The notes under the pieces: generated by a model | Databases searched by the model: none | The model's input: only the letters and a program-made list of their open reading frames with translations | Told to the model about the DNA's origin: nothing | Translations under genes and position numbers: made by a program | Source: Harriotta raleighana | Taxonomy: Eukaryota | DNA length: 64,000 nt | Assembly (NCBI GenBank): GCA_050575255.1 | Contig: JBNZDD010013724.1 | Coordinates: 7,857,146-7,921,145, forward strand | Direction of reading: 5' to 3' | Part shown: positions 4,206 to 18,899 of the stretch, piece by piece | Layout of the letters: each line of letters starts with the position of its first letter | How positions within the stretch are numbered: position 1 is the first letter of the stretch

Positions 4206-6161
4206 ATAGCTGAATGAATCACTGTTCTGAGATTTTGCCTCTGGTTGGAACTCACTTCAACCTTGCTACTTGTAGAAGGTCAGTCATCAAAGAGAGGGGA
4301 AGTGGAAGATAAGGTGGGGGCGGTGGGGAGATCACTTTACTCCCCAAAGACAATGTATTATCTGCTGGCAAAATCCACCTGCTTTCTTGGTAGTGAGGCT
4401 TAGTCACTTCAGCATCTACACCACTCCATCCATTTCCACACACTCTTCAGTGACTATTAATACCAGCAGGCGAAGCTACCCGTCCAGTGAGGGACCAGCC
4501 ATCTAAGTGAGGGCTTTTAGTTTCCCTCTGATTGTTTGTTTATTCTTGGCTCTGGTATATCAAAGGGAGGATACTATTAAACTCATCTATCACATTCGCC
4601 TAATCCCAGAATCTCCTCCCACTTTCCTTTGAAGATCTCACTCTCAGAGGCCCTACTAGCATGGCTTGATGGACTCATCACAATATTTTGCATTCTGGCT
4701 TGGTTTCTCTCTCCCATTCATTTCTTGTAATTGAACTGTTTGCACTCTTCAAACTGTGGTTTAGAAAGGCATGGGGACAAATCATGAAACACAGACAAAT
4801 AGACTTACCCCACAAGAGAAATTGAATGCCCAAAGCAGGAAACACTCTCCTTCCTAATGATTCCTCCACAGATATACCAAACTCATAATTGGAACTTAAT
4901 TTCATTGTGGCACCAAAGAATTGGAGCTTGTGCGCAGTTCACTATAGTAGTGAGGAGCAGGATTTATACGCATTTGACTCAGGTTAGCCTTGCAAGCCTT
5001 AAAAGGTGTTACTAGATGGCCAAACAGCAGAAAGCTTGCAAAACAGTGCTCTCTATCCCACATTATGTGTTTTCAGCTGATTAAACTGCAGCTGTATCCC
5101 AACACACACTTCGGGGTCTTCTAGCCTCTTGCTAATCTGTGCCTAATAGTCTCCTGGATTAGGTTGGCAAACTGCATACCTCCAGAAAGAAGGTGTGCAC
5201 TCCTTTCCCGATACAGGGAAGTTTCCATGTGTAGGTGACATGGATGGAACTCTCAGCCTGATATAGATACTCGTAAGTATGGTGATGGATTTTACACGGG
5301 TCAGGTACTTAGGCTGACCAAAAAGGGTGAGTGGAGCAAGACTGCTCATTTGTATTTGAGTGTGCTGCCAATTCAAATCAGTGGTGTAAAATTGTGAGAA
5401 AAATTGGTATGTAAAATGTGATAATTATCACTGGCAATGATTGTTATAACCTTGCTAAACACAGTCGAGAAAATCAACAATTAAAAGCTGCCTCACTGGC
5501 GGGCAATCCCTCCCCTTTCCTGTCTTCTTGACAAATGTCCCTTTCCTGTCTTCATGACAATGTTTGAGTGTGACATCTCCTTTGACCACTATTAGATTTA
5601 GTGTTTATTGATCTTATTCATACTTGAATGCCAGTTGCTTACAAAATGTAGTCACTACACCTTCCAGTAAATCCTGCAAATCTCTTTAATACATCCTTCT
5701 GACTGGTACTATTTCAAATGCCAAGATTATTATTATAATTTGAGGAATAACAATTTACCTCTGATTTTGGGGGTTGAGTTTAAGGCAGTTGGCAAAACAC
5801 GGGGAGGTCACGAACGATGATATAACCGAATACCGCACATTAATCAAGTGCTCACATATTTGTAAACAATAACTGTTGTATTCAGCTGGAAAAAACCTAT
5901 TCTGTTCAGGAACAAATTGAAACTTTCATGAGTGCAGTTTGTGATTGAGTTTACTAGATCCAAGATAATCTCTTTGGCACAAAAATGCGAATCCTCTTCC
6001 CAACCGATGCTTTCTATCTCGACTGTGTAGCTGGTCTGAATCTTTTGAGTTCCTGAGCTCGGCTCAATGGGGCAGAGGGCATCTGCCAAGGAATTACAAA
6101 GTGAGCACACCAGATGTTGCATGCACAACACATGACAAGAGTAAGGAAGCATAGGGCTTAC

Positions 6162-6306
6162 ATTTCAGTGATCGTCTCCGGGAGATTGATGGGTATCTCG
6201 GTGAGACCTTTGCCACGACAATCCACAATACTGTTGCTGCACGTGCAGACGGCAGGACAAGACTTCGAATGGACGCTGCACGATTGTGTGAGGGAGCTCT
6301 GGTGGC
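6162..6306 (-). CDS. SLIT2: SLIT2 coding exon (exon 9 equivalent), linker plus LRRNT of D2: (G)[47 protein letters not shown](I)
   Basis: 145-nt phase 1-2 exon with cag| and |gtaagc. The LRRNT motif [33 protein letters not shown] matches SLIT2. Confidence 0.97.
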
Positions 6307-6539
6307 CTGCAGCAGGGGAAACACATTACAGGCTTTACATTTGATCATTCGAGATTCTCAGGGATCTGGCTCCCTTGCTCACGCTGGATATTGTAAAACT
6401 CACACAACTCTTTTCTAAGCAATCTACCTTTCATGTGAATTGCATCAATAAACAACCATAAATATACACCGAATGCTAATCGCAGTGAACAGACAAGTTC
6501 CATAACAGTGAGATAAAATCTGGGTTCTGTTTTGCTCAC

Positions 6540-6563
6540 CACTTCCTTTCATTTTCTTTTCCA
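6540..6563 (-). CDS. SLIT2: Weak candidate 24-nt SLIT2 cassette exon (adds VEKKMKGS)
   Basis: Sense strand reads tctaat...catattccag|TGGAAAAGAAAATGAAAGGAAGTG|gtgagc. In frame, purine-rich and without a stop, but the pyrimidine tract is mediocre. Confidence 0.22.
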
Positions 6564-6989
6564 CTGGAATATGATTCACAGGTACAGGGGGCCCCATTAG
6601 ACTTTGTCCTTATTGAACATGAATACACTGATAACTCATGTCCACTGTTGACCCAGGGGTATTTAAAGGGCTTCCCTTGTTAAAAATACAGCCCGTCTGA
6701 GTTATTAGGTTGCCACTTCTTGCATATTTACATTATGCGCAAAAAGCACTTTGCAAAGGAGGTGATATCTAATGCATAGTGCACGGGCTGGATGTGATGT
6801 CAGCGATGGGTTCATGAACCGACGGTTATTTGTCAGCACTCCATTTCACCACTAATGGACCTATACCATTATGTTATAACGGGCTGCCCCAAAATTTATC
6901 TGCGTTGCTATTCAATCAAAATCAAAATCTATTGTTCATACATGAACCGTTGAAAGTTATTTGAACGTGGGGGGGGAGAGAATCACAAC

Positions 6990-7192
6990 AGCTAATGTTG
7001 TCCCATCCCCAAACCTATTTCCAGAAGGGGTCCCTGAATAAATTCTGAATGATTTTCCCTGCGATGCTGAAGTCAAATGAAGCACCTTCAATTTGGCCCT
7101 AGCAAAGATCAGCTAACTCAGCACAGTCCAGGAATCAAATCTAAGCCACCGTGGTCCGTATGGTTCCCCTACAATTACCGAACCAGAGGAAG
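6990..7192 (-). mobile_element. tRNA-derived SINE family B, 5' part (tentatively AmnSINE2-like)
   Basis: gatcagctaactcagcacagtccaggaatcaaatc is shared with the copies at 17.2k, 27.2k, 33.4k and 61.0k. Confidence 0.65.
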
Positions 7193-7934
7193 AAGCTTCA
7201 TTTCAGAAGAAAATTATGACTTCTATTCAAATTGAAATTAGGTGGAAGAGGAAGAAGGAGATTGCTTTATCCCCAGCGTTTAATACTAAGTTGTAAAAGC
7301 CTCAAGGGATGTACTTGGAACTTTAAATCTGTCGTTTACACAAATGAGTTCAAGTACTAACACAGCTACATTTCCTGCGTGCAATGTGGGTCATATAGAA
7401 CAAAACATTAGAATCAGCACCTGAGATCATCCAACTAAACAGATGATACTGTATCACACACATAAACCCAGCAGACTGAATTGACAAAGGGGATTGAATG
7501 ACTTTCTCTTGAACACTACTTCATTCAAATTAAAAATTCACTCTGGTTAAATGGATGCAGCATTTTTTTGTGTGTATATTTCATCCACATGACTAGTAAC
7601 CATAACAGCATGTCTTCCCAGTCTGTCAAGGACAAAAGCTTGCTGTCAAGTCCAGAAAATGGTATTCTGAGAGAAATAGAACCTAGCCATAAAAATAGTG
7701 TGTGCATATCCCAGTATGACTGGTGTCTGACAAGTTGTAGTAATGCCCTAACAAGTATTATTGACATGTCTGTTCTCTCCCTGCATGACTGTGTGAGAAG
7801 AGTGGATCTAAATTATGGGGTGATTAACAATATAAAATATGATATATGGGCAAAATATGAAATTTCTCTGTACGTCATCTCAAGAATAACTACTGTACAT
7901 GAACCCACACAAAAGATGGTTTAATGAGTAAAAA

Positions 7935-8382
7935 CACCGCCCGGTAAAGCACTAAAACAATCCGGGTTCTAATCCCATCTAATCTAAATGATCTGATCAC
8001 AGATAAGAAAGTATTTGAGCGTGCTACAAATGACTTTGACATTCTTGAGTTAGGGAGGTAAAAATTAGACAGGCATTCATTCTTCTTCTGATCTAGATTC
8101 TACTAGTGATTGCATGTATGCGAATGTCAGGTGAAAGCAGGATTAGATTTGGCTGCGATATCTTCTGTAATACTAACACTCCCTGTCAAGGTTCGCACAT
8201 GAATATAACAAAAAAATTACACTTGTACAGCATCTTTCACATCCGGAGGATGTCCCAAGGTGCTAAACAGTCATTGTTTTAGTGGAAATTTGGGAAAGAT
8301 ATGATTGGCCACCTATGGAACCACAACCCAAGAGAAGGAAAGAAGAAGCCAAAATACTTTCAGAAGAGGAGGGGAGAAAAAT
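7935..8382 (+). mobile_element. SINE family B, near full length, with a nested inverted L2 tail at about 8206-8275
   Basis: Carries the family motifs tagggaggtaaaaattagacagg, caggattagatttggctgcgat and ttcagaagaggaggggagaaaa. Interrupted by acttgtacagcatctttcacatccggaggatgtcccaaggtgct. Confidence 0.7.
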
Positions 8383-8856
8383 TGATGCAAATAGAAAATA
8401 TATATATATTTTTTAAAAACACAAGCAAATTGGAATCACACAATAACATTTAGCTAAGTTATCTTTAAAACTGCTCGAAGATCAAAGCGCACTTTTAGCT
8501 GTCCACAGAAATGCAAGGGGTCTAGAACAGTCTGTATAAATGCGAGGATAATTTACAACCTTTCAAATATTGGGAAGCACAATGGGCAACTCTGAGTGAA
8601 TCAGAAGAAAGAAGATCAACTCTTTCAAGTCATGTGCTAAACCTAAGAGCTTTGCTCTTGTGCTCTGGGACATCCAACAGCGGGCTGAAATTCTGATCGG
8701 TGCTATGTGTAGCACCTTTGTTGATGCACAAGTGTAATGTGGAAATCCGATCCAAATCCAACATTGTCAAGTACACGTTGGCTCCAACATTCTCCAACAA
8801 ATCCAGCACCAACACACTTTACAGTAGATCTTATAAATTGCTTTGAGATATTTCAA

Positions 8857-8966
8857 TTCTGGTTGATGTTTTATATCATAGCATTCTAATCATACATATA
8901 CATAAATACAAAACTTCCCTGCATTTAATATGATTATAATGCTTCGATATAAAACATCAACCAGAA
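8857..8966. repeat. Inverted repeat: 38-bp arms (8857-8894 and 8929-8966), 35/38 complementary, 34-nt loop
   Basis: TTCTGGTTGATGTTTTATATCATAGCATTCTAATCATA ... TATGATTATAATGCTTCGATATAAAACATCAACCAGAA. Confidence 0.92.
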
Positions 8967-9273
8967 GTTTAGCCCTTATGATTCTTCAATTAAAATACTT
9001 GCTCTCAATTCACTGAGGAGTACCTATTATCAACTTCTGGGCAGAAGCCCCATGCCTTCTACATGGTGATGGATGAGGGTGTTAAACAGCGACAAGTAAA
9101 GTAAACGCAATTGTTCAAAGCCAGTTTGTACAAGCGGGGGTGCCAATGTGATCCAGGTATATTCTAAAAAGCTTTACAATCTGTCGAATGTTGCATACTC
9201 CTGCATAGCAAAGAGTGGACCCATGAACACATCTTACGCAACGTACAGAATACAAAACAGAAATAAGACTTGC

Positions 9274-9285
9274 CTTCATCCTCAT
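9274..9285 (-). CDS. SLIT2: SLIT2 alternative 12-nt microexon ATGAGGATGAAG encoding DEDE in the D1-D2 linker; GC-type donor
   Basis: Sense strand reads cactaat (branch point), then gttttcttttctctctcccgctttccag|ATGAGGATGAAG|gcaagt. Phase 1-1 and in frame. Corresponds to the known mammalian S->SDEEE isoform insert. Confidence 0.88.
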
Positions 9286-9468
9286 CTGGAAAGCGGGAGA
9301 GAGAAAAGAAAACACAATGAGATTAGTGCCATGCAAGTACCTTCCGCAGACTGCAGGCAAAGGCGTGTAGTTAACATTCCAAGCAATCGGTTACGGGTTT
9401 CCTTAGACAGTAAGAAAAGCAGTACAAAAGTAAAGCAATATAAACACAAAGACTTGCCTCATACTTAC

Positions 9469-9474
9469 CAAAAC
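9469..9474 (-). CDS. SLIT2: Candidate 6-nt SLIT2 microexon GTTTTG (adds GF)
   Basis: Sense strand reads catcttttcccctcag|GTTTTG|gtaagt. Frame-preserving, 183 nt upstream of the DEDE microexon. No transcript evidence available. Confidence 0.45.
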
Positions 9475-10384
9475 CTGAGGGGAAAAGATGTCTAAGAGCA
9501 ATTTGCTAGTCAACCGCAGTAATGAAAAGCAAGCACACCGGGACTACCAACAAGCAGGTCATGGAGCAACCTTTCACTATCCGATGCCTGAATAAATATA
9601 CACTTTGGCAAGATCGAGACACAATCTCAGCAAAATCACATTCTATGCATGCCGTGAAGGGCCACCTTACGAGAGGAATTGCAAATCTAAAGTGTTATGT
9701 TTTGATTTGTTAGCAAGATTAAAATAAAAAACAAGACATTTTAATTTACGGAGGTGGTTCTATTCTCCGGAGATGTGATAGAATCAGTGGTATGGGTCCA
9801 CTTTGAAGACCAAAAGAAACAGCAAGCTTAGAACCAACACAAAATTATAGTTACAGAGGTAACGCTGTGATGTTCGGTCCAATATCTCTGGGATCACCAA
9901 GAGAAGTAACGGTGAACAAACCACAGCAACTATTAAAGCATCCATCCTACAGTTTTATTGAGATCAAAATAGGAGGAAGTAAGCTTAGACAGTCAAGCAA
10001 GATGTTAATTTAGAAATGTTCTAAGAAAACGGGTATCATACAGCAACATAAGTCAAGAATAAGCATTAATAAAAAAACACATGTAGAACCGAGTGGTCAT
10101 ATTCAAATAAGTGTATATTTGTATATTTATACATTTCAAATCTACACTGAAAAATTCAACTAATGTTAAACACTGATACATTAGTAATACAAACCCCAAT
10201 CCTCAGTGATTCTTTCTATAAACGCTGCTGTGTGCTTCTGCCTCACACCTGTCCCATACAGACTTAAATGAAAATATAATAAAAGTGGCTTTTTACAGAT
10301 TCGAAAAGAAGCAGGTTAGCACGGCACGAGTGCCTCGGGCAACTAATTTCTCTTAGTTTTAACATAGTTCTTTCTCACTCTTAC

Positions 10385-10548
10385 CGGAGCAAATGAACTC
10401 CCTCTTTTGCACCTCAGCAACGTTATGACCTCTCAGGTGTCCCGGTCCAATGCACTGTGTGTACAGCCCGACTCGCGGACGCTGCCGCAGCCAATCAGAG
10501 AGCCAGGCCAAGTGGCAATCGCAGTACAGGTTATTTGAATGGAGCCGG
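10385..10548 (-). CDS. SLIT2: SLIT2 coding exon (exon 8 equivalent), LRR C-terminal cap of D1: (F)[54 protein letters not shown](G/D)
   Basis: 164-nt phase 2-1 exon with a long pyrimidine tract, cag| and |gtaaga. Contains the LRRCT motif CDCHLAWL. The residues [10 protein letters not shown] and [15 protein letters not shown] point to SLIT2 rather than SLIT1 or SLIT3. Confidence 0.98.
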
Positions 10549-11969
10549 CTGAAGAAGAAAACGACGACGAAGAAGAAGGAATAAAGTCAATACATTGAAA
10601 TGAGCAAAGGAGAGCAAGCAGCACAATTTCAGAGACCCGAGGTTAGTGTAATAAGGAGAACAAATGAGGAATCAATCCCTTAAGCTCATCTGTAAATTTA
10701 AAGCTCCTTGACAGGACCATTTCCAATAGTTGCAAGTTTTTTTTTAGCAACACTCCTCTGACAGCAGCCTTTTAGCTGGAGATTAATTAATTAATAAAAG
10801 TTGGCTCAGCCGTCACAAAATCAATTCAGAGCGTTTCCCCTTGACTATATTACAGGCTCAGCAAACATGTGAGAGCCAAAAAACCAATTATGGAATTCGG
10901 AAGCTTAAGTCTAACAAAAGACAAGAAAAGTAAATTGCATCTCAGTGGTAACATACTGTCAGCAAGAAAAAAATAATGCTAATAGAAGCTTTGGCTCCCA
11001 ATTATAAATACCAATAAGTCTAGTCATTATTAGCCTCTATAGAAACTGCCTCCAAAATCCTTTTAGCAAATGACATTTCTTTTCTTCTAAACAAGATAGA
11101 ATGATAATTCAATATAAAGTACTCCTTTCATATCCTTTTCCGAGTTCCTCCTTTTTTTGTTTAATCACAGAGAAAGGATTAACAGATTTCTTTCCCTCGA
11201 GACTCGTGCTCAGTGCAATCTGTGAAATTAAAAGACGCAAATGGCAGCGAGCAGGGGAATTAAGTCAGTTACTTCTCCAGGCAGGACCTTCATAGGAATA
11301 TGGCTCCCTTCCAACAAGCAAAAAGCACCTCACCATCAATAAAATATCAGATAAATGTATCCCTTAAATTAGGTAAATTACTTTAGACTGGCTTTCCTGT
11401 TTCTCAAAGTAAAATAAAGGACGCCAAGAACCATAAATCAAGTTGCCTGCTCGTAACGCTTCTTTGACTATGTAATGTAATTTCATCAGATCCTTTTAGT
11501 CAATGCATTCAATCCTAACAAAATACACCCTAATGGGTATTGAAGCATTGGCCGCAGTCTAGCATGCTAATTTTCCACTATGGAGAGATGATTGGATAGA
11601 CAGTTACTTTTAATTAAGTATTGTACCTTGCAATATAGGCATCCCAGTCAACTGAGTTCAAACATACATCAATGCAGTGTATTAATACTTAGCATTTTGC
11701 ATCAAAGTAGTATAAAGAGTGAACATCTTAGATGAAAGATATTTTCATTGGGTTTTGTACAAACCATTCTATTTATTCTGACCACTCCAATTTATATCTT
11801 TAGGAGATAATCTCTAGGAAGCAGCTACAACAAGATTTAAACCCAAACAAAGATTGTACAAGCTGATACAGTTTCTAGTTTTGTTAGTTGTTTCTATTGT
11901 GAAGCATATTATTTTACTCTCTGTGATTCAGTTCGTACAAGTAAAAATAGTTGACTTTTTTTTACTTAC

Positions 11970-12041
11970 AAGGTTCTGAGCCTGGGCATATGGTTGAAAC
12001 TCGCCACTGAAAGCCGGGAGATGTTGTTATTGTTAAGGGTG
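11970..12041 (-). CDS. SLIT2: SLIT2 coding exon (exon 7 equivalent): (L)[23 protein letters not shown](F)
   Basis: 72-nt exon with cag| and |gtaagt. Matches SLIT2 [24 protein letters not shown]. Confidence 0.97.
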
Positions 12042-14484
12042 CTGTAAAACAAGAGATGCTGAAATTTCACAAGGTTATCAAAGTCTACCTGATATTGGGT
12101 TTATTCTAGAGGTTTCTTTGCTGACAATAAAGCTGTCTATGACTAGCGATGGAGGGAAAAAAATGTATTCTCATTTTGGGGAGGTTCAAAGAACTTTGAT
12201 CGAACTGTTTTTAAATACCCTCGCTTTGTACAAAGACTGAGTATTTAATATAAGATCATTATTCATGACTGTATGCTTCATAGCAGAATGGAAATGTGGG
12301 CTTTCAAAAGGCAGACAGGGCAGCCTTCTAACACCAGCAGCAATTGTGCACTATCTCACTTTGAAATGCTGATAGCACTTGCTTGCCTTCACTGAGTGCC
12401 TGCCTGCTCTGTTTAACAATTAAATTACAATGCACGGCAACATTTAGATGCAAATCATAAAGGCAAACGGCTTGGACAACTTTGTTTTCAGTGTTTCCAG
12501 TGAATAATAACAGTCTGTATGTTATCAAGCAAACTACTACAAAAATCTGTGACATTTTATTAAATTTTATTTTCAAATGAAGTTCATTATGTATGCCCTT
12601 GCGTGAAATGTGGTAACCATTAAAGATACCAGCCTTTAAAGAGGTTTCTGACCTTGGTTTATTCATTACCTGGTAAGTTTAGCTCCTGTGCTTTCTGAAA
12701 AAGGCAAACTCCATATTGTCAGATGAATGTACCAAATGAAGTTGCAAAGGAAAGCATCTAAAATTCAGGTCAGTAAAATAACCGTGTCTTCAAGCAACTT
12801 CATTTTGAGTCACTTGGGAAGATGAACCGGCTGAAAATAATAGGATCAGAATAACAGCAGAATTTTGCCTTCGGAATAAATTCAACCTACCTCTGATGGC
12901 CAGGTCACCTCCCTGCCCACCATATCGACAGCTGTTCTCTCTCTCTCACTCTCTCTCCCTCTGACATTCTTGCAAGAAGCTTACGGACATTTTTGGAGAA
13001 GAATCTCACTGAACTCCGAGAGTTATCACAACGGAATTGATACAGTGATGCCTGAGCTCACTAAGATTCCTTCTCTCTAAGCAGTCACTGCAATTTACAG
13101 CCGTTCAGTTGGATTACACAGAGGGACCGTGCTCCTCAAGGACATTGCACAGCGTTTCCATTTTACAGCCATTTTATGAACTAGAGGGCTGGAAACTGAA
13201 TGCAATTTTCTTTGACCTTTTATCCTGTGGAGCTCCAGCAAACCTATAGTTGCCTGTTGAGATATCTTAAACGTAATGTTAAAGGACAGCTAGCCAAGGA
13301 TTTAAATCAATGCTTTGTTTTGATAAATAAGAGAATTCGGTATGAACTGCACTAGATTCAGCTTTGTGAGCAGAAGGGACCCAGACTCCCCCCACCCTAA
13401 TCCAGAGCGGCAAAGAAAAGCACCACAACCCTTCCCCCAAAGAACAGAAGAAGCAGACATTTTAACTGCATGCAGTAAATCAGGTGCTTGGAAACCCTTT
13501 ATCTGAGCAGCTTAACGTGAGTTAATATGTGCCATTTCCTGCAAGGCTCCTTCTTCTACGTCAAGAGTTTAGAATTAATTGACTTGATCTTTGACAGCTA
13601 CTGAAACCAAAAGGTTTAACCTTTCTCAAATCAATGGAGCCAAGGAGCTACTCTAGGGAAGACTTCCACCCTTTTAATTGAGGAGCGGGATAGCCTTTGT
13701 TTCAAATATTTGGGTGATTAAAATACTTCCAAAAAGAGGAACTTAATCTTAGTTTCCTCACATACCTACCAGTACCCAAAGAATGTAAACCACTGAGTCA
13801 CAAGGTCAAAGATGACAGGGATGTGTAAAGTGCTCTAGATTTTCCCAGCCTTAGCTTTTCTCTTCATCAGATTCTATTGAACTGACAACTCCCTATAGTT
13901 TCTGTTGCCAGCTGTTAAGTACTGTTCATAAACTCTCTTCAGTTTTGTGAGTGACTCTAACTAATGCTTTCGGTATATGCTCATTGAGCTTTAGTCTAGG
14001 ACTGACATTAACCTTTTCATCACAAGTACAGTTGACCCATAGAAGACGTCTGTGGGCAACTCACGTTTTGTCTTACTTTGAAATCTGAAATCAATGTCAC
14101 TACATGGGACAGCAATAAATATGAAGCATTTTGAGTCATTAATTGATACGATGAGGTGGGCTAAAAATGAAAGTCCATTCTTTTTCTTTGATCTGCCATC
14201 TCTGGTCAGGTAGTGTGAGTATCACTTTGCCTTCAATAATACCTTACGTGCATGCCTACTCACCCCTGCATGGGCAGTTAAACGAGAAATGTAGCAGTCA
14301 TCTCTTCAGTATGTGGGATTTTTGCAGAGCATTAAATGTGGAGTGAGAATTGTTCTTGAATATATCATAAATCTTTTACAGCCCTCAGCCTAACACAAAA
14401 GCACTGCAAACTTTAGATAAACTAACATGTCCGTTATCCCTGACTGAAGGGCTGCTTTCACAGCCAGATTGAAGCAGTACTCAC

Positions 14485-14556: not shown

Positions 14557-15360
14557 CTGTTAAACAGATTAGCAGGATAAACGTAAAGAAGCAGAACATT
14601 AGCAGTGTTAGGTATCCCATAGCCTCCATCTACCCAGACTCTGTAACCAGGCCTGCAACCGTGTTCTTACAGGTGCTCTCTCTCCTCCCCACCCCCTCTC
14701 TCTTTCTCTGTTACCAACAGATACACAAGCACACACACTCCCACTGTAAAATACCTCTGGCCTTAGAATTGTTTTGATGTCTGCACCGATCACCTGAAAA
14801 CGTTTGTCCTTCCCGAGAGCTTTGCAGCAAGAGAAGTGCAGGAAAGCTCCAGTAAATAATAACCGTGCCTTATATTAAATGCCGACGGAATGCAATTTCA
14901 TTACATCAAGAAAAGCTATCCATTAAAAGCTTTCAGCATCATCTCACTGAAACAATTTCATTAAGGAAAAGGACTGTAAATCACTTAATGTCACAGTGTT
15001 CCCCTCGGTGACCTAACAGAATCCATTTATCAGAGGAGCACAGCTGCATGCTAATTCCACCATCCTTGGCGAGACCAGGAGAATTCTCTCATTCAAACTC
15101 AGCCCTCGATATCAGTCTCTGGTAACCACTATCAAACAAGTAAAAGCACAGAGGACAAGCAAATTTCACTTTGCCAAGCACTCAAATTTATCATCAGATA
15201 CAAAATGGAACGCAAAAAAGCAGCCCTTTCAGAAACCTTTTAACTGATCATTTCTCCTTGCTAAATATAAATTCTGCTTGACACCAACTTTTAAGTGGAA
15301 GTGATTTGAAGCATCAGTCTCTGTTTTTCTGTTTAAGAAGTGTTTGGATACTCAGGAGAG

Positions 15361-15557
15361 CTGGCTGTAGAACACGGAGGAAAGTAGCAGCTTCTGTGCA
15401 CAGCATCCAGCGACAAAGCAAGTTCTGTATCTTTCAATTTACTCAAATCACTATGGATNCTGGCTGTAGAACACGGAGGAAAGTAGCAGCTTCTGTGCAC
15501 AGCATCCAGGGACAAAGCAAGTTCTGTATCTTTCAATTTACTCAAATCACTATGGAT
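15361..15557. other. Assembly false duplication (98 bp twice, around a single N at 15459)
   Basis: The copies differ by one substitution (cagcgac/cagggac) and abut an N. Confidence 0.85.
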
Positions 15558-15916
15558 GCTGGATAGCTGGATAGTGGTTACCAGTGAAATAGAGACACAA
15601 GTCAATGGAATTCGAGCATTCCAGAACATTTTGCTCTGTGTCTTTCTCTGCCAAAATTTTTCAACAAACATTTTTAAGCAATATCATGGTCCTGCCCATA
15701 ATTTTAAAATGGCCTTCAGTCCTGAAAGGGTTTCACCTTCAGTGATTTTCTATTGAATTTAAGGGAATAAATATGAATTTCTAGCTCTGGAACGAATGGA
15801 AGATCATGGGTCTTAAAACATGGTGCTAAAATCTGGTCACTGATGCATCAGTTTCCTTAAACAATATCCTATTGGATGGTCTCCTAATTGTTTTCTGGAC
15901 ACTAAGGCTTCAATAC

Positions 15917-17694: not shown

Positions 17695-18215
17695 ATGATG
17701 CAGATGATTATGGCACTGGAAAGGGTGCAGAGGCGATTCACAAGAATTCTTCCAGGAATGGGAAACCTTAGCTATGAGGACAGGCTGGAGAAGTTAGGAC
17801 TTTTCCCATTAGAGCAGAGAAAATTACGCCGGGTCCAGATAGAGGTCTTCAAGATCATGAAAGCTTTCGACAGGCTAGATAGGGAAAAGCTGTTTCCGCT
17901 GGTAGGTCTGTCTGTGACCCGAGGTCACAGTCTTAAGATATCTACCAAAAGAAGCAGATGGGAGGTTAGAATAATTTTTTTCACTCAGGGAGTTGTTCGA
18001 ATTTGGAATGATCTGCCCGAAAGGGTAGTGAGGTCCGATTCGATAGCAGCTTTTAAGAGAGAACTGGATAGGTATCTGGAGAAGACGGACTTGCAGGGTT
18101 ATGGAGAGAAAGTTGGTGATTGGGGTTAATAAAAGTGACATTGCTCTGTCAAAGAGCCGGCACAGACTCGATGGGCTGAATGGCCTCCTTCTGTGCTGTA
18201 ACATTCTATGACAAT
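17695..18215 (+). mobile_element. CR1 LINE 3' fragment (ORF2 C-terminus plus 3' UTR), relatively young
   Basis: Uninterrupted 144-aa frame LERVQRRFTRILPG...YEDRLEKLGLF...FFTQGVVRIWNDLP, followed by the CR1 tail gatgggctgaatggcctccttctgtgctgtaacattctatga. Confidence 0.95.
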
Positions 18216-18899
18216 GACTCTATCAGTAGGCTATGAGTGATACTTGGAACAAAATCCCAAACTAGCAAATTTACATCAATAGATATTTCCAATTACAGTA
18301 GAACCCCGTTTATCCGTGACTCGAATAATCAGAAAACCCGTTCAACCGCCACTTCAAAAAAAAAATCCCGATCCGATTAACCGGAAGTTATCTGGAGACG
18401 CATTTAATATTGGGTCTAAATTCGTTCCAGTTTTTTTTTTTACCTTTTTTTTTACCTTGTTCAGATGTGCCTGTCGTTGGGAAGTTAAGTACTGAATACA
18501 TAATAAATACTGCTGCAGATAGCGACTAGAGAGAGAGGGAGGGAGTGGGCGGGGGTGGAGGGGGGGGAACAGAGAGAGAGAGGGAGTNATCCCGATCCGA
18601 TTAACCGGAAGTTATCTGGAGACGCATTTAATATTGGGTCTAAATTCGTTCCAGTTTTTTTTTTTACCTTTTTTTTTACCTTGTTCAGATGTGCCTGTCG
18701 TTGGGAAGTTAAGTACTGAATACATAATAAATACTGCTGCAGATAGCGACTAGAGAGAGAGGGAGGGAGTGGGCGGGGGTGGAGGGGGGGGAACAGAGAG
18801 TGAGAGGGAGTGGGGGATGGAGAGACAGAGAAAGAGAGAGTGGGGGGGGGAATGAGAGAGGGGGGATAGGGAGAGAGAGAGAGATAGGGGAAAGCATAA

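Follow-up and report, generated by a model that had tools for sequence, protein, structure and literature searches.

A probable pseudo-microexon of six nucleotides beside a genuine 12-nt microexon in slit2 intron 8 of Harriotta raleighana

Introduction

The described systems that come closest to the six bases considered here are the microexons controlled by SRRM3/4, the small exons of vertebrate Slit2 itself, and the vertebrate recursive splice sites and RS-exons, reportedly described by Sibley in 2015, together with Hoppe-type lariat sites. In SRRM3/4 targets, the pyrimidine tract and the branch point are distant from the AG; UGC lies in the intervening stretch in 74-79% of the targets and is absent in 21-26%, and donor strength is the main correlate of microexon inclusion, as reported in the available part of that study (10.1101/2024.09.17.613571). 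One such exon is carried by Slit2, namely the 27-nt exon MmuEX0043693, which is SRRM4-dependent in mouse according to the accessible portion of PMC4387716. In addition, vertebrate Slit2 has a 12-nt microexon in the linker between leucine-rich repeat (LRR) domains D1 and D2, and its tandem exons of 24 and 18 nt in the D2-D3 linker show that a single linker between LRR domains can hold two small exons. As for recursive splicing, the accessible part of PMC10156609 places minimal-motif sites in introns with a median length of 3.4 kb and high-confidence sawtooth sites in introns above 170 kb.

Here, we mainly focus on the stretch GTTTTG in slit2 intron 8 of the chimaera Harriotta raleighana, analysed within a 64,000-nt stretch of genomic DNA (the window), which a preliminary description had put forward as an undescribed 6-nt neural microexon or a recursive splice point. 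We regard it, with a probability of about 0.62, as a cryptic, normally skipped pseudo-microexon, possibly what remains of an ancient local duplicate of the adjacent 12-nt cassette.

The slit2 locus and intron 8

On its minus strand, the window covers slit2 exons 5-9, numbered in what we take to be the scheme of human SLIT2. The peptide of exon 8 (10547-10386) is 100% identical to five Callorhinchus milii Slit2 records among the 120 matches listed, and the gene, the strand and the neighbouring DEDE exon had all been named correctly beforehand. Intron 8 (10384-6307, 4,078 nt, phase 1) falls where LRR domain 1 ends and LRR domain 2 starts; the D2 fragment of known structure, 2v9s, starts just past the D1-D2 linker. 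The positions of the relevant features are collected in Table 1.

No Rfam family was found within 6100-12200, and folding of 9540-9240 gave no telling structure in a single fold without a shuffle control. A peptide RFGDGTTLAVV (about 7020-6985, minus strand), considered as an antigen-receptor J segment, was rejected as a chance resemblance, with no adjacent recombination signal or donor. Intron 8 also holds a short, high-copy repeat at 8205-8283, where contig depth is very high, and intron 5 holds a reverse-transcriptase-like LINE fragment at 17695-18126, presumably CR1-like. At about 15336-15683 and 18283-18750, near-exact local duplications lie beside N bases and are possibly assembly artefacts.

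Table 1. Features of slit2 around intron 8, in transcript order (positions of the window)
Feature	Position	Strand	Basis
slit2 exon 8, closing LRR domain 1 (...KREFICS), phase-1 donor	10385..10548	-	peptide identity with C. milii Slit2
UGC / YGCY motifs at 9535, 9531, 9518 and 9500, all upstream of the pyrimidine tract	9498..9535	-	
Putative branch point TTGAC (matching yUnAy), 5′ of both competing AGs	9509..9513	-	motif scan
Second upstream AG, 31 nt from the 6-nt candidate; absent from the preliminary description	9506..9507	-	
Competing AG, 17 nt upstream of the 6-nt candidate (-2.6 bits); 23-nt frameshifting exon	9492..9493	-	
12-nt pyrimidine run, then AG; acceptor TCTTTTCCCCTCAG	9475..9488	-	9.6 bits
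Putative 6-nt exon GTTTTG (would add Gly-Phe)	9469..9474	-	sequence and translation in context
Consensus donor GTAAGTAT	9461..9468	-	9.0 bits
ATGAG+GCAAGTCTT, look-alike of 12-nt exon end plus GC donor; second possible donor (17-nt frameshifting exon)	9449..9462	-	
Real 12-nt microexon (S-DEDE-G), acceptor 14.1 bits, AG-free zone 55 nt	9274..9285	-	relative's spliced contig and 32 proteins
GC donor GCAAGTCTT of the 12-nt exon	9265..9273	-	sequence; mouse table row
Next constitutive exon after intron 8 (exon 9; GHQ..., start of LRR domain 2)	6162..6306	-	
24-nt exon AKEQYFIP and 18-nt exon GIHHFGC, splice sites intact	downstream of window		
33-nt exon EIPGPCGFLVP and 27-nt exon AANLNEVEK, splice sites intact	downstream of window		

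Splice signals and reading frame of the 6-nt candidate

The elements on which the proposal was built, namely a pyrimidine tract ending in CAG, the bases GTTTTG and a consensus donor, were all located on the minus strand at 9488-9461. Translation in context bears out the proposed frame FICS-GF-(DEDE)-GHQ, with GF, GF+DEDE and DEDE as the in-frame options. The candidate shares several properties of SRRM3/4-dependent neural microexons, being within 3-27 nt, keeping the frame, lying between AG and GT, and containing no stop; its 5′ splice site is also strong, with GTAAGTAT matching U1 in full and scoring 9.0 bits against a median of 9.8. The competing AG 17 nt upstream had likewise been foreseen, and the frame shift of the resulting 23-nt exon was verified; this AG limits the AG-free zone of the candidate to 17 nt. 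Among the alternative exons, a frame shift results from those of 17, 23, 34 and 37 nt; one of 48 nt contains stops. YGCY occurs on both sides of the candidate and TGCATG lies 134 nt downstream, motifs that we take to be those of MBNL and RBFOX, respectively.

Expectation by chance

Splice-site matrices were derived from slit2 and one paralogue in the H. raleighana genome, which together supplied 45 acceptors and 43 donors, after misplaced boundaries (3 acceptors and 6 donors) had been removed by eye and one donor corrected. Scored with these matrices, the candidate reaches 9.6 bits as an acceptor and 9.0 bits as a donor, the medians of the real sites being 10.4 and 9.8. Equal-or-better sites of 3-30 nt number eight in 926 kb of control strands, counted without the candidate and without the real 18-nt exon, and two of these eight are in frame. 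The expected number of in-frame sites this good is about 0.14 per 64-kb sense strand, which is unremarkable for a scan of this kind, but about 0.01 in intron 8.

A stricter pattern, Y10-N-YAG-N6-GTAAGT, has at least 27 matches in the whole genome, where base composition predicts about 21. The same pattern with other exon lengths gave at least 23 matches genome-wide for 5 nt, at least 26 for 7 nt and at least 27 for 8 nt, falling at longer spacings to at least 18 for 9 nt and at least 11 for 12 nt, and reversed-pattern controls gave 41-76. No in-frame excess was seen, the lengths 6, 9 and 12 totalling 56 matches against 76 for frameshifting lengths (lower-bound counts). Most sites of this kind are therefore background. 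Comparable sites also occur close by: slit2 intron 9, about 1.4 kb beyond the window start, holds an in-frame 6-nt look-alike (GAGGTT with gtgagt, 9.6 and 8.9 bits), and the antisense strand carries a 6-nt look-alike that scores better than the candidate. The candidate stands above chance expectation only modestly. If it is unused, it would serve as a caution that good splice signals six bases apart occur at background rate.

Comparison with SRRM3/4-dependent microexons

The candidate resembles SRRM3/4 microexons such as the 27-nt Slit2 exon in being very short and in frame, in having a strong 5′ splice site, and in residing in an axon-guidance gene that already carries such an exon, but its 3′ layout is different. 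The preliminary description had cited upstream UGC motifs as the element used by SRRM3/4; such motifs are indeed present, but their placement is wrong, as the nearest TGC is at -26, past the competing AG and upstream of the tract. The tract itself abuts the AG, with no UGC between them. The AG-free zone of 17 nt also differs from those of the annotated Slit2 exons of 12, 24, 18, 33 and 27 nt (55, 42, 117, 105 and 37 nt, respectively), and only one of 45 constitutive acceptors has a zone as short. The UGC test is weak, however, because 21-26% of the targets lack the motif and because the SRRM4-dependent 27-nt exon has no TGC within 60 bases upstream in this genome.

These features outline how the six bases would be skipped. 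An exon of six bases would fall below ordinary exon definition, so that its inclusion would need dedicated help, and the candidate lacks the layout of SRRM3/4 targets, its tract being not distant from the AG and UGC missing in between. Scanning from the likely branch point would reach two other AGs before the candidate AG. With an exon this short, a layout of the wrong kind and earlier AGs, exon 8 would then be spliced onto the 12-nt exon or straight onto exon 9, the candidate being bypassed except for low-level noise.

Evidence on use of the six bases

Evidence on splicing comes from a relative, protein records and a published table. In the relative, a spliced contig of 3,098 nt (depth 99.7) joins exon 7 to exon 8, and exon 8 to the 12-nt DEDE exon and exon 9, so a form with the 12-nt exon alone does exist in that species. 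The six bases are absent from the exon 8-9 junction of this contig, which represents one sample of another species, with tissue not stated and a run not on record as RNA, and, as contigs drop rare forms, shows presence rather than absence. An intron 8 contig of the relative differs from this genome at 186 letters over 8493-10077, the two being about 88% alike. The run that yielded this contig gives no splice joint over intron 8, and a third run leaves the site uncovered, neither of which bears on use.

A total of 419 proteins were collected, of which 298 were Slit2 with a readable junction, while 102 without the junction and 19 Slit1 were set aside. A Gly-Phe insert occurs at none of the 298 Slit2 junctions; 252 have no insert, 32 have a four-residue insert, one has EE, and 13 are otherwise occupied or mis-modelled. 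The set covers 14 records from elasmobranchs and 7 from C. milii, and a shark cluster was seen for 15 of its 103 members. The 12-nt exon itself appears in just 1 of the 14 elasmobranch Slit2 records, which indicates that annotation misses such small exons, and for sharks the protein-junction test is weak.

The same outcome was obtained from published material. MicroExonator searches for GT-AG microexons from 3 nt up, and its mouse table of 2,988 rows lists Slit2 transcript rows of 23, 24 and 27 nt, with no 6-nt row in intron 8 in the part available (PMC7821500). A 6-nt Slit2 exon is not described in the mostly open-access literature searched, and none is named in the accessible portions of PMC7720527, PMC12308364, PMC12358039, PMC6687390 and 10.64898/2026.09.05.749416.

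Against this background, a real 6-nt cassette microexon restricted to chimaeras or cartilaginous fish, included in some cell types and placing Gly-Phe alone or with DEDE in the D1-D2 linker, is unlikely. It would account for acceptor and donor scores close to the median values of genuine sites together with the full U1 match, for a frame kept without a stop, and for a site of which only about 0.01 would be expected in intron 8; the 183-nt intron to the 12-nt exon suffices for joint inclusion, the neighbouring microexon is genuine, the gene has five small exons, two of which (24 + 18 nt) lie in tandem at the next linker, and YGCY on both sides and TGCATG downstream point the same way. Its absence from the relative's contig, from the 298 protein junctions and from the accessible mouse table (PMC7821500) argues against it, as do the short AG-free zone and the lack of an in-frame excess of the strict pattern genome-wide. 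For a used neural microexon, all observations lean against. If used nonetheless, the six bases would represent one more microexon beside five small exons, in one lineage and with two linker residues, and would be relevant to microexon birth, more so if derived from the 12-nt neighbour.

The two donors and three AGs raise another reading, in which the GT and the copied GC donors would act as decoy U1 sites, or would give rare 17- or 23-nt poison exons, tuning inclusion of the 12-nt exon or the level of slit2 mRNA. The donors are 11 nt apart and score 9.0 and 10.7 bits (the latter scored as GT), every combination save the 6-nt one shifts the frame or has stops, and the cluster adjoins an exon with a weak donor; yet the upstream AG scores -2.6 bits, and such clusters arise by chance or decay. 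A regulatory role of this kind appears improbable.

Possible origin as a tandem copy

The GT donor of the candidate is followed directly by ATGAG+GCAAGTCTT, which resembles the sequence 184 nt downstream where the 12-nt exon gives way to its GC donor. Local alignment of the candidate flank with the 12-nt cassette scores 44, exceeding every one of the 7,382 control windows (which average 17.9 and reach 42) and all 1,000 shuffles (mean 23.5), and the 10-mer at the GC donor occurs just twice in 528 kb of strands, in the candidate flank and at the 12-nt exon. Anchored on GTAAGT, the candidate flank is the best of 252 G[CT]AAGT sites (67.5, next 63). When the two units are aligned globally from their GC donors, the resemblance is weaker, as 8-88 of about 2,440 controls score at least as high; the flanks are both rich in pyrimidines, and intron 8 also contains an exact 12-mer repeat attributed to chance. 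Judged from these alignments, descent of the candidate from the 12-nt cassette as a decayed tandem copy is only a suggestion, a fair guess rather than an established result.

A further reading starts from the pairing, in the alignment, of the old exon body with the new donor: a young 6-nt microexon would have arisen when the ancient 12-nt exon with its GC donor was duplicated in tandem, taking a new GT donor from the exon body and a new AG in the old tract. We consider this a long shot. The candidate and the 12-nt exon share intron, phase and the GC-donor motif and lie 183 nt apart, but the 12-nt exon is spliced in the relative, is found in 32 proteins and has a 55-nt AG-free zone, and nothing of this kind was seen for the candidate. 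Likewise, the tandem 24- and 18-nt exons are found in proteins of sharks, sturgeon, bichir, frog, lizard or teleost, whereas Gly-Phe is found in none. If the reading is true, chimaera Slit2 could have linkers of 0, 2, 4 or 6 extra residues just before the Robo-binding domain.

Scarcely credible is a recursive splice site, also raised in the preliminary description, in which exon 8 would be joined to the candidate AG and the following GT reused as donor. In its favour, the candidate has a YAG followed by GT after a pyrimidine tract, as vertebrate recursive sites, RS-exons and Hoppe-type lariat sites do, and is the sole match to the minimal motif Y5+N0-4YAGGT in intron 8, and such sites have been reported in introns with a median length of 3.4 kb. 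Against it, that motif is common, with 99 matches in 528 kb (on either strand, about 1 per 5.3 kb), high-confidence sawtooth sites come from introns longer than 170 kb, this intron measures 4 kb, and no donor consensus follows the GT; the regenerated donor CCG|GTTTTG scores -3.8 bits, the 10th percentile of real donors being 6.1, and a stronger, consensus donor would rival it 6 nt on (intron lengths of reported sites from the available part of PMC10156609). The skipped pseudo-microexon remains the reading that we prefer.

The 12-nt microexon and other small exons of Slit2

The GC donor of the neighbouring 12-nt microexon is a firmer result than the 6-nt site. In mouse, the corresponding exon has GCAAGT at the same place, and the 23-nt row of the MicroExonator table, the sole row for this intron and called 'novel', represents the DEEE exon extended past its GCAAGT to a GT further on (both from the accessible part of PMC7821500); the GC donor is therefore common to mouse and this genome, and tools restricted to GT-AG misreport the exon. 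We found no paper that brings together slit2, GC-AG and a microexon in the literature searched.

The residues encoded by the 12-nt exon vary among groups, with DEEE in birds, mammals and Xenopus, DEDE, DWDE, DGDE and others in teleosts, and DDDK in Scyliorhinus; the exon is missing from all 7 of the 7 C. milii records examined. Small Slit2 exons of 12, 24, 18, 33 and 27 nt in this genome are supported by protein records. Those of 24, 18, 33 and 27 nt are not found in the C. milii Slit2 model where the alignment is visible, and the 18-nt exon has no row in the available part of the MicroExonator mouse table (PMC7821500). Unusual inserts also occur at the Slit2 junction occupied by the 12-nt exon, namely EE in Poecilia reticulata and DFNS in Xyrauchen texanus.
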